Of a stretch of 64,000 nucleotides of DNA, positions 1 through 22,001 are shown in pieces (within the stretch, counting starts at the first letter, position 1; each line of letters begins with the position of its first letter). A program made the translations under genes and the position numbers. The notes below the pieces were generated by a model. The model saw only the letters and a list, made by a program, of their open reading frames with translations. It was not told the origin of the DNA and did no database searches. The DNA is from Patescibacteria group bacterium (GTDB lineage: Bacteria > Patescibacteriota > Minisyncoccia > Phycocordibacterales > Phycocordibacteraceae): positions 4,517-68,516 of the forward strand of contig JAGWWI010000002.1 of assembly GCA_018970465.1 (NCBI GenBank), read 5' to 3'.

Positions 1-1085
1 CCGCGGACCAATAAACGCAAGATCGCCGGCGATTACATTGATAAGCTGCGGTAGCTCGTCAATGCGGGTCTTACGAAGGAAGGCGCCGAGCTTCGTGACA
101 CGATTTGCGGCACGCAGCTTCGGATCGCCGTGGTCATTAATGAGCATCGTCCGCAGTTTGATGAGGTTGAACGTGCGACCATCCTGCCCCACCCGCTCGT
201 TCTTGATAAATGCCGGCCCGCCGGAGAGTCGCAGGAGCACGGCTGCGAGCGCTATGAACGGCGAGGCGATGATGAGGACGATAATGCCGAAGAGAATATC
301 GAAGATGCGTTTAGCGGCGCCGTAGAGCGTGCGATGGCGTCTCGGTAAGCGCTCGAGGAGCCACGCATGATCGATGTGGTCGAGCGGTACGCGATCGAAA
401 ACGTTTTCATAAAATGCCGCGAATTCAAGAAATGCCGTCCCGCCAAGCAGGGCGCCATATAACGCCGGGAGGATCGGGGCGACGGCTGCGTCGCGCGTGT
501 CGATGACGACGGCCGTGACGCCGGCACGGCACGCGCCATTTACAAGGCGTTCGAGTTCCTCTGGACGCTTTCCTGCCGGGTCGATGTGCGCGGTAAATGA
601 GAAAAGGTAGCGGTCGTTGCCGTTTACTTCTTCGAACACTTCGCGTGCGGCTGTTCCGCTTGCGACGAGGAGCGCGCGCGTTTTCGCGCCGGCGCTGCGC
701 TCGCGCTTCGCACGATAGAGACGCCACGCAGAAACCGCGATGACAGAAACGGCAAAGTAAAGGGCGAGAATCGTCTTCGGCGCGATCGAGAGCGGCAGTA
801 CGAAGAACAAGAGGGCCGCAAGGATGACGTTCGCCACCTGTGCGCCGAGGATGCGTTCGCCCATCTCGAGCTTCACGAGCCGCGTCTGTTTCTCGTAGAG
901 CCCCGCGATGTAGAAGACGACGATCGAGAGCAGGAAGACCGGGATGAAGGGGGTGAGGTTCGATTCGAAGTAACTAATCTGCGGGAATCCGAAGTTACGG
1001 ATAGCAAGCGCCACCCAGAGGGATGCGATAAGAATGAGGAAATCGCCTAGTGCGAGAATAGCCGTTTCCCGGCGCGTAAACTCCA
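1..1085 (-). CDS. Polyprenyl-phosphate sugar phosphotransferase (bacterial sugar transferase, WbaP/EpsL-like). 3'-partial: the C-terminus runs off the window start.
   Basis: Continuous minus-strand reading frame from the ATG near 1085 to position 1. N-terminal TM helices are followed by the motif '...SPFIALAAVLLRLSGGPAFIKNERVGQDGRTFNLIKLRTM...RVTKLGAFLRKTRIDELPQLINV...', typical of the sugar-transferase family. Not in the ORF track because it reaches the window edge. Confidence 0.75.
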
Positions 1086-1131
1086 TGTTGGTGCATACTA
1101 TAACGTAAAAAATTGTTGTACAGTTTCCTCT

Positions 1132-2127
1132 ATGAAAGCCTCGCCCCCTAAGAAGGTGCTGTTCGTCATCACGAAATCCATCTGGGGCGGAGCGCAGCGG
1201 TACGTCTACGACCTTGCGACGCACCTCCCGAAAGACCGGTTTACGCCGGTCGTCGCGGCCGGCGGGGACGGTCCCCTCCTCACGAGGCTCCGCGATGCCG
1301 GTATCCGCGTCATTCCGCTCGCGCTCACGCAGCACGCGAACTTCTTCGCGACTCTCTTCACCCTCGCTCCGCTCTTCCGCCTCGTCAGCATCATGCGCGA
1401 AGAGCGACCCGGGGTAGTCCACGTGAACAGTGCGAAGGCGGGCGGACTTGGTGCACTTGCCGCGCGTATCGCCCGTGTGCCAAAGATCGTCTTCACCGTA
1501 CACGGGTGGTCATTCCTTGAAGCACGCAACCCGCTTGTGCGCTCGCTCATTTATTTCTTCTCGTGGCTCACCGCCCTCCTCGCCCACACGGTCATCGTCG
1601 TCTCAGACCACGACCTCCGCATCGCGCGGCGCATGCCCTTTATCGGGTCAAAAACAGTACGGATTTACAACGGCATCGATCTCGACGCGCCGCTTGGCAG
1701 TGGAGAACAGATTCGGCGCGCCTTCCCCGCCGGAGTGCGCATTACCGGAACTGTCGGCGAACTCACTAAGAATAAAAATCACCTGGCGCTCATTGAGGAG
1801 GCGCGAGAGGATCCGGAGATGTTCGTCGCGATCGTCGGCGAAGGTGAGGAACGTTCACGTCTTATCTCGGCGATACGCGCCGCCGGCCTTGAAACGCGCG
1901 TGAAGCTCTTCGGCTTCCTCCCTGCGCGCGAGGTACTGCGGGGCTTTGACGTGTTCGCGCTCCCCTCCCGCAAGGAAGGCCTCCCCTACGTGCTTATCGA
2001 GGCGCGTGCGGCCGGCCTCCCTATTCGCGCCAATCGCGTGGGCGGCGTCGGCGAGGTCCTTGACGCGCCCGACCTGCGCGTCTTCTCTCTTGACCAGATG
2101 GTGCGTGAGACGAGCGAACGGTACTAG
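1132..2127 (+). CDS. Glycosyltransferase, family 4 (GT-B fold)
   Basis: 331-aa ORF. Shows 'KVLFVITKSIWGGAQRYVYDLATHL', '...EGLPYVLIEARAAGLPI...' and an E-x7-E-like C-terminal half, as in GT4 enzymes. Divergent from the upstream sugar transferase. Confidence 0.8.
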   Translation: MKASPPKKVLFVITKSIWGGAQRYVYDLATHLPKDRFTPVVAAGGDGPLLTRLRDAGIRVIPLALTQHANFFATLFTLAPLFRLVSIMREERPGVVHVNSAKAGGLGALAARIARVPKIVFTVHGWSFLEARNPLVRSLIYFFSWLTALLAHTVIVVSDHDLRIARRMPFIGSKTVRIYNGIDLDAPLGSGEQIRRAFPAGVRITGTVGELTKNKNHLALIEEAREDPEMFVAIVGEGEERSRLISAIRAAGLETRVKLFGFLPAREVLRGFDVFALPSRKEGLPYVLIEARAAGLPIRANRVGGVGEVLDAPDLRVFSLDQMVRETSERY

Positions 2128-3261
2128 TCACCCGCCTACGTATTCATTTGCGCTTATATCGCGTGGCGCGGCGCGGCTGTAGCGCGCAAGCGAGGTCACG
2201 ACGCCAAGCGCGGCAAATTCGAGGACGAGGTGCGAGCCGCCTGAACTCATAAATGGTATCGTCGTGCCGGTTACCGGCAGAAGGCCGAGGCTAATGCTCA
2301 TGTGTATCGCAACGTGCGCGGCGAAGAGTATGAGTACGCCGAGCGTGAAAAAGGCGTCGAAATTCGTCGCCGCCGCGCGCGCGATCTGCGCGAGCCGCGC
2401 GAAAAGAAGCGCGTATACAAGAAGGAGGAGCACCACCCCAATGAAGCCCCACTCCTCGGCAAACGCGGCGAAGATGAAGTCGGTCTGGTATTCGGGCAGG
2501 AAGCGGAGCTTTGACTGCGTACCGTAACCGATGCCTTTGCCGAAGAGTTCTCCGGAACCGACAGCGATCTTCGCCTGGTAGGCGTTATACCCCGACCCGT
2601 GAATGTCGCCCGCCGGGTTGACGAACGAAATGATGCGCGCGCGCTGGTAGGGTTGCAGCCCGAAGGACCAGAGCGCCGAAGCAGCGACGAGGCCAATGCA
2701 GCCAAGGATAGCGAGGTGTTTTTTCGAGATGCCGGAGACGAGCATCATGCCGAGCCAGAGGACGCTGAATATGATGGCGTTCCCAAGATCCGGCTCGATG
2801 AGAATGGGCAGGATGAGTGCGAGCGCGTACGCGCCCGAGACGATGATGTGTCGATAATCGCCAATCTCGACGTGCCGGCGCGAAAGATACTTCGCGAGAA
2901 GCGCGATGAGGGAGAACTTCGCGAGATCCGCCGGTTGGAAGGAAACCGGCCCGAGCGAGAACCATGCGCGCGCACCCATCACCGGGTGCGCGATAAGGAG
3001 CAAGAGCGCGAGAAGCGCGAAAGAAATCCCGTAGAGCGCCATGACGACAATCGTTCGACGCATGAGGCGCATATCGAGCGTCGAGAGCACTAGGTAGATG
3101 ATGAGCGAGATGGCGATCCAGAGGAGCTGGCGCGGCGCGAGCGACGCGCCCTGCCCGAACGTACTCATCGTGAGTGTGCCAAGGAGCGCGAGGGCGAGCG
3201 CAGGAAAAAGGAGTGTCCAATCGAAAAAGACGATTCGGCGCGGACGTGGTGGAGAAACCAT
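2128..3261 (-). CDS. SEDS-family cell-wall polymerase (FtsW/RodA)
   Basis: 377 aa and polytopic. Conserved block 'GYNAYQAKIAVGSGELFGKGIGYGTQSKLRFLPEYQTDFIFAAFAEEWGFIG'. Confidence 0.85.
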   Translation of the reverse strand: MVSPPRPRRIVFFDWTLLFPALALALLGTLTMSTFGQGASLAPRQLLWIAISLIIYLVLSTLDMRLMRRTIVVMALYGISFALLALLLLIAHPVMGARAWFSLGPVSFQPADLAKFSLIALLAKYLSRRHVEIGDYRHIIVSGAYALALILPILIEPDLGNAIIFSVLWLGMMLVSGISKKHLAILGCIGLVAASALWSFGLQPYQRARIISFVNPAGDIHGSGYNAYQAKIAVGSGELFGKGIGYGTQSKLRFLPEYQTDFIFAAFAEEWGFIGVVLLLLVYALLFARLAQIARAAATNFDAFFTLGVLILFAAHVAIHMSISLGLLPVTGTTIPFMSSGGSHLVLEFAALGVVTSLARYSRAAPRDISANEYVGG

Positions 3262-3280
3262 ACGGCAGGATCTCCCTTCG

Positions 3281-4054
3281 TTATGGGAGCGGCGGGAGCG
3301 GGATGAGCGGCGTCACCTGCATCGTTGTTGGAACGCCAGAGAAAGCATTATTCCAGGTAAAAATTGCCGTTGCCGTGCCTTGCGGAGGTATGAGCGGAAG
3401 CACGGTCTGTGACGCGGCGATGACGTCGTTATTCGCGTCGCGTACGACTACGATCGCCTGCACGTTCGTAAGCGGCTTGATGTCCCCGTTTGCAAGGACC
3501 GCAGCGATACGGGGCATGTCCGGCGATCCACCCTGCGTCACGCTCGACACGCCCGGTATGACGCGCGTATCTTTCGTCATGGTGAACCACCGCAACGATG
3601 ACGAGTCGATGGTAAGAAACGCCGTCGCTACCGCCTGATTCCCCGACACAACGCCGGGGAGAAAGACTGGCACCGTCGCTCCCGGCGGCAGGTCAAGCGT
3701 ACCGGAGATCTCCTGCAGAGGCGTGTGGTCGGCGCTATAGAGCGCTACGTGGTACGAAACATTCTCCGCCGCAACAGTGATGTTTTTATTCTCGACTGAC
3801 GCGATAATGTCCGTGCGACCCGCGGCGTTGGTAAGCACCTTGGTGAAGAGCACGGTCGGCGCTTGCTCAAGCGCCGTACAGAGGTACGGACACGGCCCGC
3901 CGCAATCGACACCCTCTTCGCCCTGGTTTTGGATACCATCGGTACACGACGGCGCTTTATAAAAAACCGAGGAGAAAATAATCACCAGCGCCACCACGAC
4001 AACTGCGCCAATGATGGAAAGAATGGTGAATCTTCGCCGTGCTGCCCAAGACAT
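3281..4054 (-). CDS. Hypothetical membrane-anchored protein
   Basis: ORF 3281..4126. Its first 24 codons overlap the downstream tRNA. The internal 'MSWAARRRFTILSIIGAVVVVALVIIF' (TM anchor) is the plausible start. Confidence 0.5.
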   Translation of the reverse strand: MSWAARRRFTILSIIGAVVVVALVIIFSSVFYKAPSCTDGIQNQGEEGVDCGGPCPYLCTALEQAPTVLFTKVLTNAAGRTDIIASVENKNITVAAENVSYHVALYSADHTPLQEISGTLDLPPGATVPVFLPGVVSGNQAVATAFLTIDSSSLRWFTMTKDTRVIPGVSSVTQGGSPDMPRIAAVLANGDIKPLTNVQAIVVVRDANNDVIAASQTVLPLIPPQGTATAIFTWNNAFSGVPTTMQVTPLIPLPPLP

Positions 4055-4099
4055 GAAAGTAAGTATAACAAAAAGCCCGCGCGAAGCGCGGGCGAGAAA

Positions 4100-4177
4100 T
4101 GGTCGGGGTGAGTGGATTTGAACCACTGACCCTCTGCCGATGGGACAGATGCTCTACCGGACTGAGCTACACCCACG
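4100..4177 (-). tRNA. tRNA with CAU anticodon (Met or Ile2 type); 3' CCA encoded; acceptor stem irregular
   Basis: Reverse complement: 'cgtgggtg ta gctc agtccggta gagc a tctgt cccatcg gcaga gggtc agtgg ttcaaat ccact caccccg a cca'. D, anticodon and T arms are canonical. The 5' acceptor strand has one extra nucleotide relative to the 3' strand. Confidence 0.6.
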
Positions 4178-4205
4178 ATAAAGAACAAAGAAATTTCAAG
4201 TATTC

Positions 4206-4325
4206 GGTTCTGGCGGCTAGCTACTCTCCCCATCTGTAACGATGAGTACCATCGCCGCTAGGAGGCTTGACTGCCGAGTTCGGAATGAGATCGGGTATGA
4301 CCCTCCCGCCAAACCACCAGAACCG
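4206..4325 (-). rRNA. rrf: 5S rRNA
   Basis: The plus strand reads as the reverse complement of a 5S rRNA. It has complementary helix-I ends (ggttctggcgg ... ccaccagaacc), 'ccgatctcattccgaactcggcagtcaagc' (loop C) and 'gggagagtagctagccgccag'. Confidence 0.85.
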
Positions 4326-4695
4326 AACACTCGAAGTGTCGGCATACGAAACGCATAGGATAAGAATGTGTGAACAAATGATTGTGCTATACAGAGTTCC
4401 GCACGAGAGACTGGACATATTAGTACTCCTCGACTCCGCGCCTTACGGCGCTTCCATCTAGAGCCTATCAACGTGGTCATCTCCCACGAGTCTCATAACG
4501 ATTCCTAATCTTGGAGCACGTTTCCCGCTTATATGCTTTCAGCGGTTATCGCAACCCGACATAGCTACCCAGCGGTGCCCTTGGCAGGACAGCTGGTAGA
4601 CCAGAGGTCAGTTCATCCCGGTCCTCTCGTACTAGGGACGACCCTCCTCAAGAATCAACGCCTGTAGTAGATAGGAGACCAACCTGTCTCACGCA

Positions 4696-5003
4696 TCTAC
4701 GTTTGCTCGCATTACTGCGAGGATCGGACTGTAACACCACCCGATCTGGGTGACCAACATTCAGTCTCTAGAGGCGCCGAGATTTTTACTTCTCCGCTTC
4801 CTTCGGTGTTGCCCTCTCGTACACAACGAGTTCGGGTTCCACCGATATCAGTTGATTTGCTAACGTACGTATTCCTACGTACGACCGCCGTGAGTATGTC
4901 TTCGCACACTGCGTCTCCACGCAGCTAACAATTGCCTCGTGGATTCAGACCGTTCAATCACCGACACTCTGTCAGTTGCTGAACGGTCTGAACCCAGCTC
5001 GCG
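4696..5003 (-). mobile_element. ORF-less intron-like insertion (about 308 nt) in 23S domain V, near E. coli positions ~2593-2596
   Basis: Exon sequence 'gaccaacctgtctcacg' (4679-4695) and 'gtctgaacccagctcgcgtacc' (from about 5004) are contiguous in a normal 23S (GGGUUUAGAACGUCGUGAGACAG). About 308 nt lies between them. The insert ends in G before the 3' exon, as in group I introns. Class not established. Confidence 0.55.
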
Positions 5004-5714
5004 TACCTTTTTAATTGGCGAACAGCCAAACGCTTGGGAGCTTCTCCACCCCCGCGCTAAGGTGAGCCGACATCGAGGTGCCGAACTCCGCCGTCGCTAT
5101 GGACGCTTGGGCGGAACTAGCCTGTTATCCCCAGGGTAACTTTTATCCGTTGAGCTTCCTCCGCGTCTAAGGCGGAAGGTCGGATCACTATGCTCTGCTT
5201 TCGCATCTGCTCGGGATGTCCCCCTTGCAGTTAAGCCAGCTTATGCCATTACACTATCGGCACGGTTTCCATTCGCGCCTAGCTGACCTTAATAGGCTCC
5301 TCCGTTACTTTTTAGGAGGATAGCGCCCCACCAAAACTACCTGCCACGCACGGTCCCGATAGGGTTCCGCCCTACCGGTTAGGCACTGCCGGATGTAAGA
5401 GTGGTATTTCACTGACGAGTCCACGGCACCCAAGAGCGCCGCTTCAACCTCTCCCACCTATGCTACGCATACATCCCGCAGGGCCAATACGAAGCTGTAG
5501 TAAAGCTCCTGGGGTCTTTTCGTCTAACTACAGGTATCCGGCATCTTCACCGGAAGTGCATTTTCACCGAGCGAATCCTCGAGACAGCTGCCCAGTCATT
5601 ACGCCATTCGTGCACGTCGGAATTTACCCGACAAGGAATTGCGCTCAGGTATTCCTCGAACCTGGACCATATCTTCACCGCCGAAACGGGCACGACGTAT
5701 GGCCTCTCATGTGA

Positions 5715-6610
5715 GTCGTGTTTAGGATTAACCGGTACATTGCTATACCGGAAGGTAGCTTCGAATAGCGCAACCTATTTACCGACTATAATGGGTCCCA
5801 ATCCTCCCACGTTCGACTGTCGTCGAGCGTGAGACCTTAGGACGATTCACTTTGTTACTCTGCCGCGAAGCGGCAACTCTCACGATCGCCCGTGAGTTCG
5901 GACTATATCATCTGAGCTCTCGCCCAGTTCAGCGTGTAGTCTCTGAGGATTCCCAACCCCATCGCCAACGATATGCTCGATGGTATATTTGCGCTTCCTG
6001 CCGCGACCTTCGTTCAGAAGTTCGCGAAGTTGCGCTATCTCTTCGAGCCCTTGCCGTGTCAGATGCTTCTTCTGAAACACCTGGTGCGCGATGTCCTTGA
6101 AGAGTTTGAAGTTCTTCTTGGATTTAGCGGACAAGAATCCGAACCGCTCGAAGAACGGAATGATCCGCTCTTCTATGGATCGCGGATTCGCCACGACGTA
6201 GTACCAGACGCCATCGCGTCGCGCTTGCAGTCGACCGCACCCAAGGTGCTGCTTCATAAGCGCGAGCACGGTCTTGTCGCGTTGCGCGACATTGAACGTT
6301 AGTACCGTCTGCCACCCGATCGTATGATCAGGCCGCTGACGGAAGGAAACGTTGAAGCTCCCTTCTCCGTCTACGAATCCTGCGATGTACCACCCTATAT
6401 GGGGCGGTATGTCGTTGATGTTTTTCATGTTGGGTCTTTCCTGCGGATTGTCTGCACTCGCGCATTGTTACAGGGAGTCTTTCATCCCGAGTAGCGCGGA
6501 GTCCTAACCAGAGTTTCCCGCATTTAGCTGAATTTTATAACTACGATCGTCCATAGTTATCGCCGACATTCACCGGGGCATATACAGTCCAGCACATACC
6601 CGAAAGCATG
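5715..6610 (-). mobile_element. Intron (probable group I) in 23S domain IV, near E. coli positions ~1860-1880, carrying a LAGLIDADG ORF
   Basis: Exon matches resume at about 5617-5710 ('...acctggaccatatcttcaccgccgaaacgggcac' = region around E. coli 1880-1905) and at about 6615-6660 ('cttaacctaccggcatcggtcaggcgtcac' = around 1830-1850). About 0.9 kb of non-rRNA sequence lies between. Boundaries are approximate. Confidence 0.65.
5880..6428 (-). CDS. LAGLIDADG homing endonuclease (single-motif, I-CreI-like), intron-encoded
   Basis: 182 aa. 'IGWYIAGFVDGEGSFNVSF' is a LAGLIDADG motif. Same strand as, and inside, the 23S gene. Confidence 0.85.
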   Translation of the reverse strand: MKNINDIPPHIGWYIAGFVDGEGSFNVSFRQRPDHTIGWQTVLTFNVAQRDKTVLALMKQHLGCGRLQARRDGVWYYVVANPRSIEERIIPFFERFGFLSAKSKKNFKLFKDIAHQVFQKKHLTRQGLEEIAQLRELLNEGRGRKRKYTIEHIVGDGVGNPQRLHAELGESSDDIVRTHGRS

Positions 6611-8687
6611 TACCGCCCGTACTTAACCTACCGGCATCGGTCAGGCGTCACCCCCTATACTTCCTCTTACGAGTTCGCAGGGAGCTGTGTTTTTGGTAAA
6701 CAGTTGCCAGGCAATCTTTCGCTGCGGCCCCGCCGCCCTTGCGGGCGAAGGGGCAGGCCTTATCGCGAACTTACGGCCGCTTGTTTGCCGAGTTCCTTGA
6801 GGATCTCTCACTCGTTCGTCTTGGGCTACTCGCCCTGACCACCTGTGTCGGTTTGCGGTACGGTCGTTCGCAAGTTGAATGCTAGGAGGTTTTCTTGGAA
6901 CCGCGCTCGCTGCCCTCTCTCCCCCCGTAGGAGGAAATTGCGTCGCGGCTCGCGCTAGTGCGTGGCGGATTTGCCTACCACGCGCGCTCACCGCGCCGAC
7001 CCAAATCCAATAATGGGCGGCAGCTACAGCAGTCCGTCACTCCTTCGCCTTACGAACGGTCACGGAATATTGACCGTGTGTCCATCGGGTGCGGCTCTCG
7101 CCATCCCCTTAGGCCCGACTAACCCGGAGATGATCACCATAGCTCCGGAAACCTTGGTCTTTCGACGTGCGGGGTTCTCACCCGCATTGTGGTTACTTGT
7201 ACCTGCATTCTCACTTCTGAACGCTCCACCGCGGGTCACCCCTGCGGCTTCATCGCGAACAGAACGCTCTCCTACCGCTTGCCGCGTACACGTACGCGGC
7301 AAACCCGCAGTTTCGGCACGACGCTTAACCCCGATCATCTTCGGCGCACGGACTCTCGACGAGTGAGCTGTTACGCTTTCTTTGAATGGTGGCTGCTTCT
7401 AAGCCAACATCCTCGCTGTCAGTGAATCCGCACTTCCTTGTGATGTACTGAGCGTCGATTTTGGGGCCTTAACTGGCGATCTAGGCTCTTCCCTTCTCGA
7501 TCGATGGAGCTTCGCCCCCACCTTCTAACTGCCGCCCGAGCAGCGGGTATTCGGAGTTTGATAGGGACCACGAGATTTCTCCCTGTTGGCCCCTTCCAGT
7601 GCTCTACCCCCCACTGCGCATATGGCGACGCCAGCCCAAAAGCTGTTTCGGAGAGAACCAGCTATTCCCAGGTTCGATTAGCTTTTCACTCCTTACCACA
7701 AGTCATCCCAACGCGTTGTACGACGAACGGGTTCGGGCCTCCAGCTGCCTTTCGGCAACCTTCACCCTGCTCATGGCAAGCTCACCTGGCTTCGGGTCGT
7801 ATCGACGCCGCAGACGCGCTATTAACGCTCGCTTTCGCTTAGCCTCCGGGGCGTAACCCCTTAGACACGCGACGTAGATACACTCGCAGGCTCATTCTTC
7901 AATAGGCACGCCGTCACCCTCCCTTGCGGGAACGGGCTCCGACCCTTTGTAAGTGCACGGTTTCAGTTCTATTTCACTCCCCTCTCGGGGTGCTTTTCAC
8001 CTTTCCCTCACGGTACTAGTTCGCTATCGGTCATAGAGCGTATGTAGCCTTACCGGTTAGTTCCGGCAGATTCATTCGAGCTATTCATGTCTCGAACTAC
8101 TCAAGAATATGGACAAAAGAGTCGTCAGCATTTCGCCTACGGGGCCATTACCCTCTGGGGCGCTGCTTCCCAGCAGCTTCGGCTATGATGACGATTGGTA
8201 ACTCTTCTCTAGCAAGCTAGACGTCCATACCTTACAACCCCGTCCTCCGAAGAGTACGGTTTGGGCTTCTCCCTTTTCGCTCGCCGCTACTTGGGGAATG
8301 ACGTGGAATGGGTCTCCATACGCACAAGCATGTGCGCACGGAGACACATTCCTATTGTTCTCTTTTCCTCCGGGTACTGAGATGTTTCACTTCCCCGGGT
8401 TCGCTTCTCGTGGACATGACTCCACGGATCTCTACTAGAAGTAGAGGGGTTTCCCCATTCGGACATCTCCGGATCACAGGCTAATAGCCGCCTCCCCGAA
8501 GCTTATCGCAGGCTAATCACGTCCTTCATCGCCGCTCTAGGCCAAGGCATCCACCGTGCACCCTTCATGCTCCCGTACGGAAGCCTGAATACCACAATCG
8601 TTTTTGCACTTTGACCTCCCTCATTTCTGAGGGAATTTCAATTACCTTTCGTATTCGTGTATCAAAGAGCCCGTGCCCTCTAACGAA

Positions 8688-8709
8688 CGAACCGCCCCGA
8701 GGGGCGGTT
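8688..8709 (-). terminator. Rho-independent terminator downstream of paralog A (hairpin gaaccgcccc-gagg-ggcggttc)
   Basis: Perfect 9-bp stem with a GAGG loop, then a T-rich tract on the minus strand. Lies between the 8851..9513 gene and the 23S 5' region. Confidence 0.55.
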
Positions 8710-8850
8710 CGTTCGTCACGAACGCGTGGCCTAGCGGCCTCCCCCCGAAATCAGGTTTTTGGTGTTCGTAGACACGTAGAAGGGAGTGTACAGGAGGGGC
8801 GAAAGCGCGTCAACTAGGACCGTACTCTAGCCTTATCGGAGCCCTGGGGC

Positions 8851-9513
8851 CTATTGGACAACGATGCTTTTGGTAGCGATTACCTGATCTCCGCTCAGCA
8901 CCTTCAATACGTATGTGTTAGGGGAGAAGTAGCGATGGCTCGTAGCAACGTCCCCTTCCGTCATAACGGGAAAGGGATCGCGCGGAGATCTGTCTCCGTA
9001 ATCGACCGAGAGCGTACTGCCGCTGCCTCTGACCTCAAACCAGATGCTCTCACCCACGAGGAGAGGCGAGGATGTTGCGACGTCAATCGACGCTTCCGTG
9101 ATCCCGCCCGAAACCGTAACGGTCGCAGGAGAACCAACACCGATGCTCGGCGGCGGGATACAGTCCCCGTACGCAGGAGCCTGACACTCCCAAGCTTTGG
9201 ACCAGGTCATGCCAGCCTGAAATGTTCCAGAAATGCGATACGTGTGCCGGGCGTGTATAGAACACATGAATAAGAAACAGGTCGAAGACGCGACCGCATC
9301 GATGCTTCCGTCTCCAAAGTACGCTCGGTAGGTCCCGCCACGCGAGGCCAGCGCCAGGGTCGAGAGGCGCACCTCAAGAGGCGCGCTGCCGCGAACGGGC
9401 GTAGCAACATCCATTCGCCCCGTCCGCCACCACATGCCACCTGCGAGCGCAGCGAGCGCGAGAACGACGAGGCCGATCAGGATGAGCGAGGCGAAGCCGC
9501 GAGCAGAGCGCAT
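8851..9513 (-). CDS. Anchored or secreted hypothetical protein, tandem paralog A
   Basis: 220 aa. N-terminus 'MRSARGFASLILIGLVVLALAAL' (basic, then G-F, then about 20 hydrophobic residues). Shares this N-terminus with the next gene. Confidence 0.7.
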   Translation of the reverse strand: MRSARGFASLILIGLVVLALAALAGGMWWRTGRMDVATPVRGSAPLEVRLSTLALASRGGTYRAYFGDGSIDAVASSTCFLFMCSIHARHTYRISGTFQAGMTWSKAWECQAPAYGDCIPPPSIGVGSPATVTVSGGITEASIDVATSSPLLVGESIWFEVRGSGSTLSVDYGDRSPRDPFPVMTEGDVATSHRYFSPNTYVLKVLSGDQVIATKSIVVQ

Positions 9514-9516
9514 GAG

Positions 9517-10668
9517 TTAGTTGGTGAAGCGGAAGGATTGGATGATCGGCTCGAGCTTCGCATTTATATACGCTTGCCCGGCATCTCCGTTAACCGTTGC
9601 GTGCGCGAGTATACCGCTATATTGGAACATGAATATATCGAGCTGATAACAAAGGCCGTTCCGTACCGTCGCGTACGTGCTATTACCGACGTCTCCGTAG
9701 GGAATGCTCGTTTGCGTAAAGGCAATATCATTTATGGTAGTTGCTGCGGTGCCAAGGGTTTTGGTACAGCCGTTCTCTCCCTGCAACTTGTCCAATGGAA
9801 CGACCGATGCAAGCAAATATCCCTCGAGATTATCGGCGCCATCCACGACGTTGAAGTATGCCTCCGGAGGATTCTCGATGGTGGGCACCGAACCATACCC
9901 GGTAGTCTGCGCCGGCACGTCAGACGGATACTGGAGGCTGAACCCGTACTGCGCGTTAGCGTAGGTCTCGAGGCCGCTCACTACTGGACCCGTTCCGGCT
10001 GCCTTGCATGTAGAATCATACGTGCGAGTCGAGCCGTCGACCGAGACGGACAGGTTCGAGGACGACAACTTCGCGGTAGCCGGATCGGCTCCGAGAATGA
10101 CGGAACCGTTGCAATAGACGTTGTGCCTGTCCTTGGCATAAGGCGAGAAGTCGAGGTTCGGATTGAGCTCGACGAAGCTCGCGGCGTCGCCACTGACGAC
10201 AGGCGAAGAATCGACGAACGCGGAGTTTTCGTCCGCACTGAAGGAAAACTTCGTGATCCCGGTATCGTTACGGAAGAAAAGGACGGGCCCTGGTTTGGCG
10301 TACCACAGGAGAGAAAAGGTCGCCGGATCGGCACCCGCTATGACTACGCCGCCTCGATATACGTGACTCTTGTCTTTCCCGAAGCACAGGCCATAGATTG
10401 TGAGGTCTTGAAAGGTCGCCGCATCCGCCCCGGCGACCTTCTGGTATGCGCCGGAGCGGGGTTGAGTATCCATATAAATGGCGTCGCCATTTTTGTAGTA
10501 ACAACCGCTATCGGGCCCTACGCGCGCCGGGTCCACCGCAACGAAAGACCCGGCAGGCTCTCCGTTATTTCTGGCCGCCCGCCATGCCCTGCCCCCTGCG
10601 AATGCAACGACGACTAACACGGCCAGGCCGATCAGGACGAGCGAAGCGAACCCGCGAGCAGAGCGCAT
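9517..10668 (-). CDS. Anchored or secreted hypothetical protein, tandem paralog B
   Basis: 383 aa. N-terminus 'MRSARGFASLVLIGLAVLVVVAF'. C-terminal module '...YANAQYGFSLQYPSD...LEPIIQSFRFTN', shared with paralog C. Confidence 0.75.
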   Translation of the reverse strand: MRSARGFASLVLIGLAVLVVVAFAGGRAWRAARNNGEPAGSFVAVDPARVGPDSGCYYKNGDAIYMDTQPRSGAYQKVAGADAATFQDLTIYGLCFGKDKSHVYRGGVVIAGADPATFSLLWYAKPGPVLFFRNDTGITKFSFSADENSAFVDSSPVVSGDAASFVELNPNLDFSPYAKDRHNVYCNGSVILGADPATAKLSSSNLSVSVDGSTRTYDSTCKAAGTGPVVSGLETYANAQYGFSLQYPSDVPAQTTGYGSVPTIENPPEAYFNVVDGADNLEGYLLASVVPLDKLQGENGCTKTLGTAATTINDIAFTQTSIPYGDVGNSTYATVRNGLCYQLDIFMFQYSGILAHATVNGDAGQAYINAKLEPIIQSFRFTN

Positions 10669-10671
10669 GAG

Positions 10672-11688
10672 TTAGTTGGTGAAGCGGAAGGACTGGGCGA
10701 TCTGGTCAAGCTTGCCGAGAAGTACGGCTTCGGTGGCAGCCGACCAGCGTGGGTCAGTGCAACCACTATTTACGCATGCGCTCGGGAAACTGGTCAGGGC
10801 GATATCGTAACAATATCCGTTATGAACGGTTTTATATTCGCGCATGATGCCCTCCGCACTCACGCCTGCCTCATATCTGCTCTCGTCGAACTTGTTGAAG
10901 GTCATGCCGCCGATAGTCACCTGCGGCGTGCCGACGGGCCCTCCCAGACATTCGCCGGGTCCTGATTCGACCGTAACCGTTAAGTACCCCTCGGTTTGCA
11001 CTTGGTCCGTTCGGAGCTGGACAGAGACTACCGGATCGATGGCGAAAGGTTTGGAGGCGAAGGCCGAGGTGGCGAGCAGCGCGTCGGGTGGATACTCGAA
11101 GCTGAATCCGTACTGCGCGTTGGTATAGGTCTGCGTCTTTGTGGCACCTGCGACCGTGAGCGTTGCGCTCGTCTCTGTGTTATTAGGCCCGAACACATTG
11201 AGCGGATATGAGCCAGGCGGAAGCGTCCTGAAGTACGGACCGTCTACGAAAGAGACGGACCATCGCGCACCAGCCTGCACACTCGTGTCCGCGCTACCCG
11301 CGAGCTCGGTGCCACCTACGCTTTTGATCTGCACGTTGATGTCTCCCGACACCAAGGCCGTCCCGCTTATGGTTGGGTTCCCTGATGCTGACGTAAGCGA
11401 ACTCTGGTCGATAGCCACGCTCGGTCCTGCCGCTGATGATGGCGCCGTAGTCGTCTGATTGTTTGGAGCCGTTGTTGCGGTTGCGTTGGAGGTACTGGTC
11501 GCAACAGCGTCGGTATGGGTTGGCAGAGTAGCTTGTCGGGTGCCGTACCACCCCGCCCCAATCGCGGCGAGCGCGAGAACGACGAGGCCGATCACGATAA
11601 GCGAGGCGAAGCCCTGTGCGGGGATGCGGGACAGGCCGCGAGCGAGGGTATGCATATGCATCGATGATAGCACCCGAGCAAGCTTCAT
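10672..11688 (-). CDS. Anchored or secreted hypothetical protein, tandem paralog C
   Basis: 338 aa. '...IPAQGFASLIVIGLVVLALAAI', a Thr-rich linker 'TSTSNATATTAPNNQTTTAPSS', and C-terminal '...YTNAQYGFSFEYPPD...LDQIAQSFRFTN'. The start may be one of the internal Met residues (MHMHTL...). Confidence 0.7.
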   Translation of the reverse strand: MKLARVLSSMHMHTLARGLSRIPAQGFASLIVIGLVVLALAAIGAGWYGTRQATLPTHTDAVATSTSNATATTAPNNQTTTAPSSAAGPSVAIDQSSLTSASGNPTISGTALVSGDINVQIKSVGGTELAGSADTSVQAGARWSVSFVDGPYFRTLPPGSYPLNVFGPNNTETSATLTVAGATKTQTYTNAQYGFSFEYPPDALLATSAFASKPFAIDPVVSVQLRTDQVQTEGYLTVTVESGPGECLGGPVGTPQVTIGGMTFNKFDESRYEAGVSAEGIMREYKTVHNGYCYDIALTSFPSACVNSGCTDPRWSAATEAVLLGKLDQIAQSFRFTN

Positions 11689-11853
11689 AAGTCCCCTGGT
11701 TTAAGTCCTGTGTGTTTCGCGATCCCCTCCGCTTTCGCGCGAGCTCCCTGCTTCGTCTTGCCGTAAGCAAGTGCTCCGGGCATGCCTGCGACCTCCGCAA
11801 TCCAGAGCCCATCAACCTCGCGGTCGAAAACAACTTCCGCTGCCCGCACAGCC

Positions 11854-12078
11854 TTACGCATTGCTACGCGTGAGAGTGAAGGGGAGGGCTATGGGCTTGC
11901 GCGTATCACGCAGGCGCCGAGAAGCGTTGAGGAGCGTGAAGCCGCGCACGTGCTTAGTTCTTGGCGCGACCCGCAACAGCACGTCATTGCCCGCCTCCAC
12001 GGTTTGATCTGAAGCGCGGGGAGCGCCCTCAGAAAAGTAGAAGACATCTGCTTCTTTATCGTAAAAATAGTTGACCAT
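11854..12078 (-). CDS. DUF2283-like small protein (candidate antitoxin)
   Basis: 'MVNYFYDKEADVFYFSEGAPR...VRGFTLLNASRRL' matches the YDxExDxLYI pattern of DUF2283. ORF track 11854..12168. The start was trimmed to the internal Met to avoid overlap with the upstream gene. Confidence 0.55.
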   Translation of the reverse strand: MVNYFYDKEADVFYFSEGAPRASDQTVEAGNDVLLRVAPRTKHVRGFTLLNASRRLRDTRKPIALPFTLTRSNA

Positions 12079-12091
12079 GTTTGTATCCAGA

Positions 12092-12370
12092 TTAGAGGCT
12101 TTTAGGCTTCTTCGCAACATAGGCAGTGAGGACGAAGGGATTTCGGCCAGTTTTGAGTACAACCGCAAGGTACTTTCTTGAACGCGGGAGCAATCCGTAA
12201 CAGATGACCACTGTCTGATCGCTGACAGACCGGGTAATCACTTCGGGCTCTGCAAGCACGGATGCGAAATGCTTGAGGTATCGACTAACATCCGGATGGA
12301 AGGCCAGGATGTGGGCCTTCCGCTCCTCCGTGAACATGACGGCCCCGAACGGCGAGCTGAACCGTTGCAT
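12092..12370 (-). CDS. DUF4258-like small protein (candidate toxin)
   Basis: 92 aa, immediately upstream of the DUF2283-like gene on the same strand. Family assignment is from pattern memory only ('...YLAVVLKTGRNPFVLTAYVAKKP'). Confidence 0.45.
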   Translation of the reverse strand: MQRFSSPFGAVMFTEERKAHILAFHPDVSRYLKHFASVLAEPEVITRSVSDQTVVICYGLLPRSRKYLAVVLKTGRNPFVLTAYVAKKPKSL

Positions 12371-12438
12371 AATGGTAGTCTATCAAACCGAAAGGCCGGG
12401 TGAACCCGGCCTTTCGCGCGCGAACCGAAGGAGGCGAG

Positions 12439-13131
12439 CTACTCCCCGATATCGCGCTGGAGATGCTCGAGGTAGCGCGCGGCGGCGCCCTGGCCGCCGA
12501 GGCCGAAGGCGAGGCCGACTGCGAGCGCGACCGCGATCACGATACCCGTGAAGAGGGTCTGGATAAGCCCCGGCGCGACCTGGAGCTGGTCGAGGGCAGC
12601 GAGGATCGCGAAGACCCAGATCGCGTAGCGCGCGACCTTGCCGAGGAAGCCCGCGGCGTGGATGCGCGCGGCCTTCGCCGACCCGGCGACGACGCTCTCG
12701 GCCGCCTGCGCGACAACCGCCGCGACGAGGAGGATCAGGACCGCGACGATTACCTGCGGGAGGTACCCGAGGACGACATCGCTCAAGAAGACGTTCACCG
12801 TCTGGAGGTGGAGGAGGTCCAAGGCCGCGACCAAGAAGACGATGATGAAGAACCACTCGACGAGCCGGCCGAGGAAGCGGCCCGAAGAGAGGTTGAAGCC
12901 CGCCCGCGAGACGACGCGGTCGACGCCCGCCTGGCGCAAGGCCTGGTCGACCCGGAGCGAGTTGATCACCTGCTCGACGATCCGGCCGAGGCCGGCGCCG
13001 ATGATCCACCCGACGATGAAGATGATAATCGCTACGATCAGATTGGGGATGAAGGCGACCAGTCCGTAGAAGAGGCTCTGGAAGGACTGGTTCAACACAT
13101 CGGCCCACGTCGTGAACACCATTGATGGCAT
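12439..13131 (-). CDS. Polytopic membrane protein (mechanosensitive channel-like, conserved TM-helix family)
   Basis: 230 aa with several hydrophobic helices. The antisense ORFs 12383..13108 and 12400..13125 are Arg/Glu-rich artefacts. Confidence 0.55.
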   Translation of the reverse strand: MPSMVFTTWADVLNQSFQSLFYGLVAFIPNLIVAIIIFIVGWIIGAGLGRIVEQVINSLRVDQALRQAGVDRVVSRAGFNLSSGRFLGRLVEWFFIIVFLVAALDLLHLQTVNVFLSDVVLGYLPQVIVAVLILLVAAVVAQAAESVVAGSAKAARIHAAGFLGKVARYAIWVFAILAALDQLQVAPGLIQTLFTGIVIAVALAVGLAFGLGGQGAAARYLEHLQRDIGE

Positions 13132-13224
13132 GATCCCGGTAATAATTAGCGGCTAAGACGCTCTAAGAGCGGCTATGCTCCAGTCTAGCAAGCCTCGCCT
13201 CCCCCGCCGGGAGGGCTGTGGATA

Positions 13225-13800
13225 CTAGGGCGTGAGGCCGATCCGGTCTACGAGGAGCCGATGCGGGTAGTCGAACACGTCGCGCAGGAGGCGATCGTAG
13301 ACGCCGAGCCGGTAGCGGAACTCCGGCGTCTCGAATACCGCGTAGCGGATCTCCCGGCCAAGCTCGGCCTCGAGGGTGCGCACCGCCTTCGCGATCGCGC
13401 GCAGGTCGAGGTTGTCGCCCGCGACGAGGAGGTCGACGCGCGTCTCGACCGCGCCCGTGAAGAGCCCCGAGAGCGCGACGACGCGCAAGGTCCCTGCCTT
13501 GCGCAGCGCGGCGAGGATGTACTCGGGCCGGAGGATGGTGGTGTCGCGGATAAACGCCTCGAGCGCGGCGAGGTGCTCGTAGCGCGCGTTCGCCTGGTAC
13601 TTGGCGAGAGCACGGTCACCGCGCTTCGCGACCACGCCCGCCTCGCGCAAGGCGGCGAGCTCGCGCCGGACGACCGTCCCGTCGAGCGAGCTCCGGCGCG
13701 CCGCGTCCGCGAGCGTGAACGAGGTGCCCTGGTTAAAGACGAAGAGCCGCAGGAGCTTCACGCGCGCGAGGGAGCCGAAGAGCCTGCCGAGTCGATCCAT
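13225..13800 (-). CDS. Winged-helix transcriptional regulator
   Basis: 191 aa. N-terminal 'VKLLRLFVFNQGTSFTLADAARRSSLDGTVVRRELAALREAGVVAKRG' resembles an HTH of the ArsR/MarR type. Confidence 0.55.
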   Translation of the reverse strand: MDRLGRLFGSLARVKLLRLFVFNQGTSFTLADAARRSSLDGTVVRRELAALREAGVVAKRGDRALAKYQANARYEHLAALEAFIRDTTILRPEYILAALRKAGTLRVVALSGLFTGAVETRVDLLVAGDNLDLRAIAKAVRTLEAELGREIRYAVFETPEFRYRLGVYDRLLRDVFDYPHRLLVDRIGLTP

Positions 13801-13837
13801 TGTCCCCCGAGTGTACCGGCTCGCAGGGAGGAACGCA

Positions 13838-13867
13838 AAAACCGCCCCTCGGGGCGGTTTTTGCCTG
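13838..13867 (-). terminator. Rho-independent terminator after rplL (aaaaaccgcccc-tcgg-ggcggttttt)
   Basis: Perfect hairpin flanked by A and T runs, directly downstream of the rplL stop. Confidence 0.7.
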
Positions 13868-13881
13868 AGAATTGGTGCCGG

Positions 13882-14364
13882 TTACTTGAGCGTAACCTTC
13901 GCGCCAGCCTCCTCGAGCTTCTTCTTGAGCTCTTCAGCCTCCTCCTTCTTCAAGCCCTGCTTGACCAAGGACGGCGCGCCGTCGACCAAATCCTTCGCCT
14001 CCTTGAGGCCCAGGGCCAAGGCCTCCTTGACCGCCTTGATGACGGCGATCTTGTTCGCGCCCGCGTCCGTGAGCTCCACGTCCGCAGTCGACTTGCCCTC
14101 CTCGACCGGGGCAGCGCCCGCTGCGGGGCCCGCGACCGCGACCGCTGCCGCAGAGACGCCGAACTTCTTCTCCAAGACCTTCACGAGCTCCGAGAGCTCG
14201 AGGACGGTCATGCCCTCGACCTCCGCGACGAGCTTCTTGAACTTCTCGGGCACCTCGGCCGTCTCTTCGGCCTTCGCCTCCGCGACAGGAGCTGCCGCTT
14301 CCGGAGCGGATTCCTCCGCGGCCGGCGTCTCGACGACCTCCGTCTCCTTTACTGCTTCATCCAT
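13882..14364 (-). CDS. rplL: 50S ribosomal protein L7/L12, with an acidic N-terminal extension
   Basis: '[36 protein letters not shown]...[27 protein letters not shown]...KVTLK'. Confidence 0.95.
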
Positions 14365-14382
14365 AATGAGTCTGTAACGCTA

Positions 14383-14877
14383 CTAAGCTTTCTGCTCCCT
14401 GATCTGATCGAGCGCGATCACGAGGCCCTGGATCGGGCTGTTGATCACGTTCACGAACATGCCGCGCAGGACCGGAACGGGCGGGATGGTCGCGACCGCG
14501 ACCGCGCTCCCCTCGTTCTGGAAGGCCCCGTCGAAGATGCCGCCCAAGAGCTTCACAGCGCCTTTGAGCTTCTTGCCGTACTCGTGGAGGAGGCGCGCCG
14601 GAGCCGTCGTGTCCGCGCCGGCCGTCCAGGCGACCGCGACTTCGCCCGGCAATTCCGGGGCGGCACCGCCGTAGTTCTGGCCGGCAAGCGCGCGGCGGAT
14701 CAGGGTCTTCTTCGCGACGTAATAGCGAATCCCCTCGCTCTTCAACTCGCGGCGCATGCTCGAGGCGTCGGCCACGGTGAGCTTGTCGAAGCCGACAAAG
14801 ACCGCCGCAGTCGCCTCCTTGAGCGCCCCTTCGAGCTTGGCGAGGATCTCGCTTTTCTTCTCTTTGCGTATTGCCAT
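14383..14877 (-). CDS. rplJ: 50S ribosomal protein L10
   Basis: 'MAIRKEKKSEILAKLEGALKEATAAVFVGFDKLTVADASSMRRELKSEGIRYYVAKKTL'. Confidence 0.95.
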   Translation of the reverse strand: MAIRKEKKSEILAKLEGALKEATAAVFVGFDKLTVADASSMRRELKSEGIRYYVAKKTLIRRALAGQNYGGAAPELPGEVAVAWTAGADTTAPARLLHEYGKKLKGAVKLLGGIFDGAFQNEGSAVAVATIPPVPVLRGMFVNVINSPIQGLVIALDQIREQKA

Positions 14878-15120
14878 GGTGTGTGTGCGTACGAACGAAA
14901 CGAGGAGCTGTTCGACCTCCCGCCTGGGGCGGAGTGTCTCCCTGCGTAGGGCTTAGTGTTGCCTACGGTCTTCGGTCCGTACGCTCCCCACCCTATCAGG
15001 AGGTGGCGCGGAGCACAAGCAAGGCCGCCGCGACGATCGCGGAGAATCCGGCCGAGAACTTCACGAACTCGACCAAGTACGGCAGAGCCGGTCGCATACC
15101 GCCATCCTAGCATGAACGCG
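14878..15120 (-). promoter_or_regulatory. Long rplJ 5' leader (possible L10 autoregulatory leader)
   Basis: About 240 nt non-coding region between a strong bidirectional hairpin (15121-15148) and the rplJ start. The assignment is by position only. Confidence 0.3.
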
Positions 15121-15148
15121 AAAAGCCACTCCTTGCGGAGTGGCTTTT
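15121..15148. terminator. Bidirectional hairpin terminator (aaaagccactcc-ttgc-ggagtggctttt)
   Basis: Perfect 8-bp stem flanked by A and T runs, just downstream of the 15211..17217 gene. Confidence 0.65.
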
Positions 15149-15210
15149 CGCTTGCTAGGCCGATTCCCTAGCCGGAGCCCTTACTTAGTTTGGGGGCTAG
15201 GTCACTAGGA

Positions 15211-17217: not shown

Positions 17218-17497
17218 AGTCTGTAGTTGGTAAGTGCTTTAAGTGCACGTGATTAATGCAAGTGTTGTGAAGCCCGGTTCAATCACACTATCCGAGCCGC
17301 GCGCGGTATCGACCTGCGCGTAGCCCGGTTAGCTGGCTAATTTGAGGCGGCCATTCTAGGCCGCTATTCAGTTATCAAAGTGCCCGCTCCGAAGAGCGTA
17401 AGGCCCAGTATACCCGGGCCCTCCGCCGAGACGGAGCCGTGCGTGTGGATAACCCACGGGGCGCACATTACCAGAGACGGGCGGGACCGTCAAAAGC

Positions 17498-18268: not shown

Positions 18269-18338
18269 AACGGACAGTATACGCGGCCGGGGTGGCCGCG
18301 CAATCGCCCAGTCGAATGCCGCAACACGCGATGCTACA

Positions 18339-20902: not shown

Positions 20903-20912
20903 CTTTTGTCTC

Positions 20913-21965: not shown

Positions 21966-22001
21966 TAGACTGAAAGTACGTAAACAATAAACAGCTCGCG
22001 T

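Follow-up and report, generated by a model that had tools for sequence, protein, structure and literature searches.

What has lengthened the 23S rRNA gene of a Patescibacteria group bacterium (contig JAGWWI010000002.1 of assembly GCA_018970465.1), and can the added sequence be removed from the RNA? The window analyzed here is the whole stretch of 64,000 nucleotides (positions 4,517 to 68,516 of the contig), in which the 23S gene occupies 4400..8577 on the minus strand and is matched end to end by the Rfam model LSU_rRNA_bacteria (RF02541; 2248 bits, model positions 1-2925). At 4178 nt versus ~2900 nt for a normal 23S gene, the expansion is real, and its extent is close to that given in a preliminary description of this DNA (4398-8580, about 4.2 kb). 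The gene contains three inserts, at Escherichia coli positions 1917, 1931 and 2593, which are group I-type introns at classic sites (L1917, L1931 and L2593; hereafter I1, I2 and I3), and covariation in relatives supports the structures of all three. In the reading that we favor, with a probability of roughly 80%, I1 and I3 would be complete ribozymes and I1 would be mobile, while I2, which lacks the P4-P6 domain, would still be removed from the rRNA. Most of the finding is routine; the middle intron, I2, is the part worth keeping.

Three inserts within the gene for 23S rRNA

The gene is divided as follows.

6553..8577, minus strand: exon 1, E. coli 1-1917, its last base aligning with E. coli U1917 (pairwise alignment); its 3' end, ...GGCGAUAACUAU, is the 5' strand and loop of helix 69
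5848..6552, minus strand: intron I1 (L1917), 705 nt, with an open reading frame (ORF) in the P6 loop
5834..5847, minus strand: micro-exon of 14 nt, AAUCGUCCUAAGGU, E. coli 1918-1931, the 3' strand of helix 69 plus linker
5646..5833, minus strand: intron I2 (L1931), 188 nt, ORF-less
4983..5645, minus strand: exon 3, E. coli 1932-2593
4694..4982, minus strand: intron I3 (L2593), 289 nt, ORF-less
4400..4693, minus strand: exon 4, E. coli 2594 to the 3' end

In-silico removal of 6552..5848, 5833..5646 and 4982..4694 yields a 2996-nt RNA that is collinear with E. coli rrlH, with junctions at U1917, U1931 and U2593 and gap-free conserved blocks on either side (pairwise alignment). Every 5' exon ends in U and every insert in G. 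Global alignment of the unspliced gene to E. coli places the 188-nt insert after position 1931 (5833..5646) and the 289-nt insert after position 2593 (4982..4694); in the ORF region, a global alignment with cheap gap extension produced false small gaps over E. coli 1856-1921 and was replaced by in-silico splicing and re-alignment. Infernal, run on a sub-window, aligned the 14-nt micro-exon as exon, flanked by inserts, with an insert of ~186 nt after it, and AAUCGUCCUAAGGU carries a compensating change that preserves the helix 69 stem (GGCGA/UCGUC).

The preliminary description had envisaged only two insertions, one of 0.9 kb with an ORF at a non-classic domain IV site (~1860-1880) and one of 308 nt at ~2593, a version that we consider virtually untenable. 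The error is a natural one in that the cheap-gap alignment likewise scatters the ORF region over E. coli 1856-1921, and the eye probably does too. However, exon sequence runs on to GAUAACUAU (E. coli 1917), AAUCGUCCUAAGGU (E. coli 1918-1931) sits within the supposed insert, and it is the removal of three segments that restores gap-free conserved blocks. The 0.9-kb box (5715-6610) merges I1, the 14-nt exon and most of I2, and on its 5' side extends over ~58 nt that belong to the exon (6553-6610); the actual sites, U1917 and U1931, are classic positions. At 2593, the ORF-less insert ending in G stands, but its length is 289 nt (4982..4694) rather than 308 nt (4696-5003). What survives of the preliminary description is the general idea of self-splicing-type introns in a 23S gene of the candidate phyla radiation (CPR), one of them with a LAGLIDADG endonuclease, but not their number, boundaries or site.

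Relatives were found through the I1 endonuclease, which led to a Kaiserbacteria, a Taylorbacteria and an unclassified metagenome-assembled genome (MAG), the first two being the closest, and further contigs were added by identical-protein look-ups. An L1917 intron with identical boundaries is present in loci L002, L003 and L005-L014, in which the exon is unbroken from 1918 across 1931/1932. The Taylorbacteria locus L004 has the same L1917 boundary, placed by eye (the BLAST boundary is offset by 2 nt), and an L1931 intron as well. Other relatives have the second intron without the first: 10 metagenome contigs carry an insert at L1931 with no L1917 intron upstream, and in one of these, L024, the exon is also continuous across 2593/2594. 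The two-insertion version is thus refuted both by in-silico splicing and by relatives carrying either intron alone. Logan contig L026, an independent assembly, is 100% identical to window 5625..6593, which covers I1, the micro-exon and I2, so that the arrangement is not an assembly artefact. Near-identical DNA is present in samples SRR32006849 and SRR32006850.

A 23S gene with three introns is ordinary for CPR bacteria. In the CPR catalogue, 82% of the 23S genes carry insertions (Tsurumaki et al. 2024, PMC11270868), and both the sites and the single-domain endonucleases are already recorded; the comparison with such catalogues proposed in the preliminary description shows that 1917, 1931 and 2593 are frequent CPR sites (PMC11270868). 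Outside the CPR, Synechococcus sp. C9 combines L1917, L1931 and L2593 introns in one gene and so has the same 14-nt exon (Haugen et al. 2007, PMC1995217). The corrected boundaries matter wherever CPR 23S sequences are extracted for phylogeny or ribosome modelling. Relatives of the window gene carry further 23S introns at E. coli ~1951/1953, 2263, 2449, 2477, 2534 and 2657, reaching five or more per gene in combinations that differ among close relatives:

L002, 4941..7892: further 23S introns
L003, 5141..7013: further 23S introns
L004, 3049..4638: further 23S introns
L011, 5644..7689: further 23S introns

The L1931 intron and its compact family

The anatomy of I2, from 5' to 3', is as follows.

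5833..5806, minus strand: 5' hairpin
5805..5795, minus strand: AGGAUUGGGAC
5759..5752, minus strand: guide, GCU-A-CCUU
5751..5732, minus strand: P2, with a GCAA loop
5729..5725, minus strand: AAUCC
5720..5715 and 5696..5691, minus strand: P3, CACGAC/GUCGUG
5714..5707, minus strand: linker between P3 and P7, UCACAUGA, 8 nt
5706..5699, minus strand: P7 5' strand; the R-like element is UGAGAGGCCAUAC
5690..5678, minus strand: P8, short
5677..5671, minus strand: J8/7, UGAAGAU
5670..5664, minus strand: P7 3' strand; J8/7 plus the S element is GAAGAUAUGGUCC
5663..5647, minus strand: P9
5646, minus strand: terminal G

The 3' half of I2 is recognizably group I, with an R-like element, P3', P8, J8/7 plus S element, P9 and the terminal G; the P3/P7 pseudoknot and a G-binding pair with a bulged A are present, and the guide is complementary to the ligated junction AGGU-AGC over 7 nt. 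Two features expected of a group I intron are missing. Just 8 nt (UCACAUGA) lie between the P3 5' strand and P7, where the P4-P5-P6 domain, described as universally conserved in group I introns (PMC6257700), would belong, and the guide GCU-A-CCU sets A opposite U-1 in place of the U·G wobble, as it does in all compact members described below (9/9).

The L1931 intron of L004, 581 nt long, is inserted after the same micro-exon and is homologous to I2 at both ends. The space between P3 and P7 is taken up there by J3/4, the P element AUAUGCUGGGAAG, P5, the Q element AUCAGCAGG and a long P6; its P3, UAUGAC/GUCAUA, differs from that of I2 by two compensatory changes, and this long form keeps G opposite the splice-site U (G·U). 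In canonical introns, the splice-site wobble pair is read by J4/5 of the P4-P6 domain. The splice-site U faces A in each of the nine short forms but G in L004, so that the loss of P4-P6 accompanies that of the wobble. By this comparison, I2 is best described as a derivative of an L1931 group I intron that would have lost the whole P4-P5-P6 domain. Its small size alone is unremarkable, given that L028 carries a complete group I intron of ~216 nt, with P4, at L1951. In the long form (L004 2139..2719), P6 holds an insert that is several hundred nt long and lacks any ORF of at least 80 aa, possibly a decayed endonuclease gene.

A metagenome scan for I2-like elements, with a pattern that only short forms could satisfy and that fixed GAAGAUA and AGGAUUGGGAC, returned 10 contigs with 8 distinct sequences, whose inserts of 178-214 nt lie exactly at L1931, all 10 between ...GUCCUAAGGU and AGCGNAAUUCC. 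Together with I2 these make up nine compact members, which share 40-75% pairwise identity and a common layout: a perfect hairpin from intron nucleotide 1, AGGAUUGGGAC, an A-rich segment, the guide (G/U)(C/U)U-A-CCU, a P2 hairpin with a GNRA loop, AAUCC, P3, a 5-7-nt linker, AGAGRCC, P3', P8, GAAGAUA, the P7 3' strand, P9 with an AAGGAA-type loop, and the terminal G. In the metagenome members, 5-7 nt separate the P3 5' strand from the AGAGRCC R element, and 5-8 nt from the first P7 pair. Two features that the search pattern did not impose are an invariant UACCU and a terminal G retained by every member. GAAGAUA and AGAGRCC are invariant as well, the former imposed by the pattern and the latter required by the regular expression used to parse the members, although the alignment shows it without that constraint as well. 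In P7, the core is either invariant or G·U, whereas the helices vary in sequence with pairing maintained:

5' hairpin: 6/6 pairs with compensatory changes, 98% of cells paired
P2: 8/8 pairs with compensatory changes, 90% of cells paired
P3: 3/6 pairs with compensatory changes, 100% of cells paired
P9: 4/5 pairs with compensatory changes, 100% of cells paired

None of 500 shuffles reached the observed values. A covariance model built from the eight members outside the window matches I2 end to end (5646..5833, model positions 1-184, 78.2 bits, E = 1.7e-16), and the same model matches L004 only as two separate halves. Judged by its 40-75% pairwise identity, the family is old.

Other pairings were considered. 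Helix X (GGAUU/AAUCC) is consistent in I2 only by way of G·U changes, one of its strands being fixed by the search pattern and its columns partly misaligned. An RNAalifold fold that pairs the 5' domain with J8/7 and the P7 3' strand (GGAC with GUCC, UUAU with AUAG) was set aside as the principal fold: it fails in L016 and is further disfavored by the I2/L016 lineage, in which coordinated changes in R and S extend P7 instead. A by-eye check of the compact members for a P4 substitute, in the form of pairing between the P3-P7 linker and A-rich segment B, found nothing consistent, and a scan of viral contigs revealed no further members of the family. The P9 loop (5647..5663 for P9 of I2) holds a conserved AAGGAA-type motif complementary to 3' exon positions +8..+13 (UUCCUU); this L9 is not GNRA, which would fit the absence of a P5 on which it could dock.

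In a near-identical strain, represented by Logan contig L025, the sequence agrees with the window without a mismatch across I1 and the 5' two-thirds of I2. Over the remainder (L025 961..1050 versus window 5716..5646), P8 is different and longer and P9 is different, with the hairpins, the L9 AAGGAA and the terminal G kept. The pattern resembles a mosaic in which structure has been preserved, and suggests that compact-intron variants have recombined.

The published introns at this site have another architecture. The L1931 intron of Synechococcus C9 has a complex P5 region, unlike I2, which has no P4-P6 at all, and that of Simkania negevensis is 654 nt long with an ORF for a 143-aa endonuclease, whereas I2 is compact and ORF-less (PMC1995217). 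The CPR catalogue classified introns by Rfam only and left ORF-less, Rfam-negative inserts, mostly <200 bp, as 'uncharacterized', the class into which I2 would fall (PMC11270868); the text of that catalogue does not describe a P4-P6-less architecture. A literature search for natural group I introns without P4-P6 gave only engineered constructs and the degenerate introns of lichen fungi, an earlier description elsewhere being possible. From sequence analysis alone, the compact L1931 intron would thus be a new variant of group I intron.

The L1917 and L2593 introns

The elements of I1 and its ORF are as follows.

6544..6537, minus strand: GUAGUUAU, pairing with exon AUAACUAU as P1, U·G at the cleavage site
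P10: ACGAU with 3' exon AUCGU
6532..6527 and 5933..5928, minus strand: P3, UUCAGC/GCUGAA
6522..6517 and 6447..6442, minus strand: P4
P and Q elements: AAAUGCGGGAAA and AAUCCGCAGG
P5: extended
6434..6429 and 5957..5952, minus strand: P6, CCCAAC/GUUGGG, enclosing the ORF
R and S elements: CAGAGACUACA and GAUAUAGUCC
5945..5935, minus strand: R element (P7 5' strand)
5927..5912, minus strand: P8
5909..5900, minus strand: S element (P7 3' strand)
5896..5879, minus strand: P9
5876..5860, minus strand: P9.1
5848, minus strand: terminal G
5880..6428, minus strand: endonuclease ORF, 182 aa, single LAGLIDADG motif

The structure of I1 was read by hand from the sequence and then tested by covariation, instead of being taken from an Rfam classification. 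It includes P3-P9, the P3/P7 pseudoknot, the P, Q, R and S elements, a bulged A in P7 and the terminal G. In a full-length alignment of six sequences, 96.3% of 409 cells are paired and 27/69 pairs show compensatory changes, values reached in none of 500 shuffles; fixed-length ORF-less concatenates of the homologs failed to align because their P5 extensions vary in length. The U·G pair is invariant in 6/6 homologs, and a compensatory change in P10 tracks the exon variant (AAUCGU/ACGAU versus AAUUGU/ACAAU in L004). These features identify I1 as a complete group I intron.

The 182-aa ORF with GFVDGEGSF that the preliminary description had noticed in the orientation of the rRNA is indeed a LAGLIDADG endonuclease gene: the product matches Pfam PF00961 (LAGLIDADG_1) over residues 15-113 with 62.2 bits, against a cutoff of 23.1, and contains one LAGLIDADG motif, which includes an acidic residue (IAGFVDGEG). 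Its relatives in the PDB are the two-domain enzymes I-SmaMI and I-OnuI, to either half of which it can be aligned, and 3e54, a homodimeric endonuclease of an rRNA intron. The family to which it belongs is very large in metagenomes (3148 proteins at E<=1e-10). The ATG directly follows the 5' strand of P6; the final ~35 codons share their sequence with P6'-P7-P3'-P8-P7', the stop codon being situated in P9. The L1917 intron of Synechococcus C9 has the same layout, its ORF starting in P6, running through P7, P3 and P8 and stopping in P9, and is of similar size, 743 nt with a 181-aa single-motif LAGLIDADG ORF versus 705 nt and 182 aa in I1 (PMC1995217). In the CPR catalogue, LAGLIDADG_1 genes concentrate at 1917, 1931, 1952, 2593, 2604 and 2657, and single-domain proteins predominate, homodimeric endonuclease activity having been shown for I-ShaI (PMC11270868). 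The I1 endonuclease would presumably act as a homodimer, cut intron-less L1917 alleles at the predicted target GGCGATAACTATAATCGTCC and so drive homing of the intron. The target encodes the helix 69 hairpin, an inverted repeat in DNA, which would suit a homodimeric enzyme.

The 3' end of L1917 introns varies. Those of the closest relatives end in A (...UUGACA-AAUCG, the hyphen marking the junction; L002 4596, L003 4608, L005 1475, L011 5607), and the terminal G is kept in the window I1 and in L004. The L1917 intron of Coxiella burnetii is also reported to do without the canonical terminal G, like L002, L003, L005 and L011 and unlike I1. Coxiella combines Cbu.L1917 with Cbu.L1951, introns that, according to the title of the report (Raghavan et al. 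2007), flank a 34-bp exon; in the window the exon is 14 nt and the second intron is at L1931 instead of L1951.

The elements of I3 are as follows.

4982..4954, minus strand: 5' hairpin
4953..4941, minus strand: complement of exon positions -13..-1, 13 nt
4894..4883, minus strand: guide, CUCACG-GCGGUC (P10-P1, G·U)
4882..4865, minus strand: P2, with a GGAA loop
4856..4706, minus strand: core P3-P9
P4: UCGGUG/CACCGA
P9: GUAA loop
4694, minus strand: terminal G

In the guide of I3, CUCACG pairs with CGUGAG of the 3' exon (P10) and GCGGUC with GACCGU of the 5' exon (P1), placing G opposite U-1. Homologs occupy the same site at eight other loci (L002, L003, L004, L005, L012, L015, L018 and L027); the guide UCACGGCGG is present within one mismatch in 8/9 homologs, and its core CACGGCGG (UCACG-GCGG) is invariant in six aligned homologs. 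The core is 90.7% paired with 25 compensatory pairs, again as high in 0/500 shuffles, and P3, P4, P7 and P8 are 100% paired with many compensatory changes. I3 is thus a complete group I intron without an ORF, despite the silence of Rfam. The preliminary description had singled it out as the ORF-less element to be recorded; it is conventional, and the odd one is the L1931 intron that had been overlooked. Unlike cyanobacterial L2593 introns, I3 lacks P7.1/P7.2, with only 3 nt between P7 and P3', and whereas all three introns of Synechococcus C9 carry endonuclease genes (666-748 nt), the window L1931 (188 nt) and L2593 (289 nt) introns are ORF-less (PMC1995217).

The two ORF-less introns share a further arrangement: a hairpin begins at intron nucleotide 1 and is followed at once by a second complement to the 5' exon, in addition to the downstream guide (I3 4941..4982 and I2 5795..5833, minus strand). 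Across nine L2593 homologs, the 13-nt segment pairs with exon -13..-1 at 11-13/13 positions, with A opposite U-1 in 8/9; at -6, where the exon is polymorphic (A/G), the intron has the matching base (U/C) in 9/9. Mismatches are frequent at the three positions closest to the splice site, the distal 9 bp being perfect. The corresponding segment of the L1931 family, UUGGGAC, is complementary to exon -10..-4. Such complements suggest that the exon is held by a bipartite clamp or subject to a timing switch, the proximal complement passing it on to the catalytic guide. Almost all of the 14-nt micro-exon is claimed by guides of the two flanking introns, nucleotides 2-6 by P10 of I1, 5-11 by UUGGGAC of I2 and 10-14 by ACCU(U) of I2, so that splicing of I1 and I2 may be coupled, competing or ordered.

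Long duplexes span the 5' junctions of I2 and I3, which speaks for the proposal that the inserts are intervening sequences (IVSs), cut out by RNase III without ligation to leave a fragmented 23S rRNA. IVSs of this kind are known from the 23S genes of bacteria, and their presence in CPR has been suspected (PMC11270868). However, known IVS positions are the variable-region sites 23IS2 and 23IS4, apart from the group I sites 23IS6-14 on the 3' side, and the inserts considered here lie at CPR group I intron sites, 23IS6-8 and 12-14 (PMC11270868), following E. coli 1917, 1931 and 2593 within universally conserved sequence. All three also have group I cores, guides and a terminal G, and we regard excision without ligation as very improbable.

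Intron removal and genomic setting

The favored reading is that the single 23S rRNA gene of this CPR bacterium, which resembles Parcubacteria/Kaiserbacteria, carries three group I-type introns, all removed from the pre-rRNA. I1 and I3 would excise themselves by two guanosine-dependent transesterifications, the usual mechanism, and their removal would rejoin helix 69/70 and the peptidyl-transferase helix 93. I2 retains the P3-P7-P8-P9 domain, J8/7, the G-binding pair with bulged A, a guide to the ligated exons and the terminal G; we infer that it is still removed through this catalytic domain, probably with assistance from the large 5' domain and the additional segments that bind the exon, and possibly from a host factor. 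The elements that serve only splicing (terminal G, guide, J8/7, the P7 G-C pair with bulged A) are invariant while the helices drift, which argues that I2 is still excised.

Several points weigh against this reading. Splicing of the three introns, like every catalytic activity and the mobility of I1, is deduced from sequence, what was observed being anatomy, homologies and covariation. I2 is without P4-P5-P6 and without the U·G wobble, and its own P8 is weak, at 2-4 bp; conservation of GAAGAUA and AGGAUUGGGAC in its family, fixed by the search pattern, is not independent evidence. Non-wobble pairs at the cleavage site are reportedly poor substrates. The Rfam/Infernal scan suggested in the preliminary description had a divided outcome: the LSU model fits the gene end to end, but the group I model (RF00028) gives I1 a score below the gathering threshold (22.4 vs 50 bits, E = 0.013) and mislocates the match (5879..6613), and it has no match on I3 or I2 even in a permissive 1.2-kb scan. 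The same model gives 77.6 bits on a different intron in L002, and in our own view the sub-threshold score of I1 reflects a limitation of the model. A T4 td ribozyme engineered to lack P4-P6 is ~1000-fold slower, with ~0.1% activity (PMC2879505, citing Ikawa 2000), which leaves the autonomy of I2 plausible, not assured. Finally, the L1931 intron of Simkania has been reported as unspliced, according to the title of Everett 1999 (as cited in PMC11270868), a precedent for retention of an insert at this very site.

How I2 would leave the RNA can be read in more than one way. A tentative possibility is that the compact L1931 introns are natural minimal group I ribozymes that splice without P4-P6 and G·U by means of a bipartite exon clamp, formed by the complement beside the 5' hairpin together with the short guide. 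They would then be the natural counterpart of the engineered 'minimal catalytic domain', in which P3-P7 was kept and P4-P6 removed (Ikawa, Shiraishi & Inoue 2000, via PMC2879505), topologically the same deletion as in I2. The engineered ribozymes are laboratory constructs, whereas the I2 family is natural and conserved and, unlike them, has an extra 5' domain and exon complements that might compensate for the loss.

It is rather doubtful, though worth weighing, that I2 is spliced non-autonomously, with the aid of a host- or intron-encoded protein or of a P4-P6 scaffold borrowed from another intron in the pre-rRNA. P4-P6 can reportedly be supplied in trans in experiments. All carriers of a compact L1931 intron that could be evaluated have one or more complete group I introns elsewhere in the gene (L1917, L1951 or L2593), but with insertions in 82% of CPR 23S genes anyway (PMC11270868) this co-occurrence is uninformative, the partner intron differs among carriers, and our analysis identified no candidate protein. 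A parallel is offered by the degenerate introns of lichen-fungal rDNA, which are short, have lost sequences required for catalysis and are inactive in vitro, yet are precisely removed in vivo in reliance on unidentified host machinery (PMC8527467). Those introns are eukaryotic nuclear elements of ~233 nt on average, with the lost elements unspecified in the cited text, whereas I2 is bacterial and has lost one whole domain (PMC8527467).

We consider it unlikely that the I2 family is no longer a ribozyme at all and persists as a retained expansion segment between helices 69 and 70 or as a decaying relic. The unspliced intron published for Simkania (Everett 1999, by its title) and the ~1000-fold impairment of the engineered P4-P6-less ribozymes (PMC2879505) speak for it, as do the absence of P4-P6 and of the G·U pair and the weak P8 of the window member. 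Nevertheless, the terminal G, the 7-nt guide, J8/7, the P7 G-C pair with bulged A and P3 are invariant or covary at 40-75% identity, and nothing would maintain such splicing-specific elements in an expansion segment. The helix 69/helix 70 region, moreover, is part of the ribosomal subunit interface, where an insert of 190 nt would be expected to be harmful.

As I2 shows, short ORF-less inserts left 'uncharacterized' by Rfam-based surveys can be group I derivatives with a defined architecture, namely a P3-P9 catalytic domain without P4-P6 and with A-U replacing G·U at the splice site. If the compact introns self-splice, nature has provided a test of what the group I fold can do without, and a self-splicing scaffold of very small size would be available; if they need help, either an unknown splicing factor or cooperation between introns would be indicated in organisms whose genomes are tiny.

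The 23S gene is accompanied by two small RNA genes.

4208..4321, minus strand: 5S rRNA (Rfam RF00001, 75.5 bits), immediately downstream of the 23S gene
4100..4176: tRNA-Met, following the 23S and 5S genes

No 16S gene was found anywhere in the 64-kb window (1..64000); the 23S-5S-tRNA-Met group stands by itself and is preceded, directly upstream of the 23S 5' end, by protein-coding ORFs, an arrangement in which the rRNA genes appear to be unlinked. Relative to E. coli, domain I of the 23S rRNA has expansions of ~50 nt at E. coli 227-233 and ~64 nt at 270-278 (window 8300..8354 and 8191..8261), which are too short to be introns. Upstream of the gene lie three tandem minus-strand ORFs (8851..9513, 9517..10668 and 10672..11688) with a common N-terminal hydrophobic segment of the type MRSARGFASL(I/V)LIGL, two of which have QSFRFTN at the C terminus; the three resemble a small family of paralogs, putatively secreted or membrane-anchored proteins.

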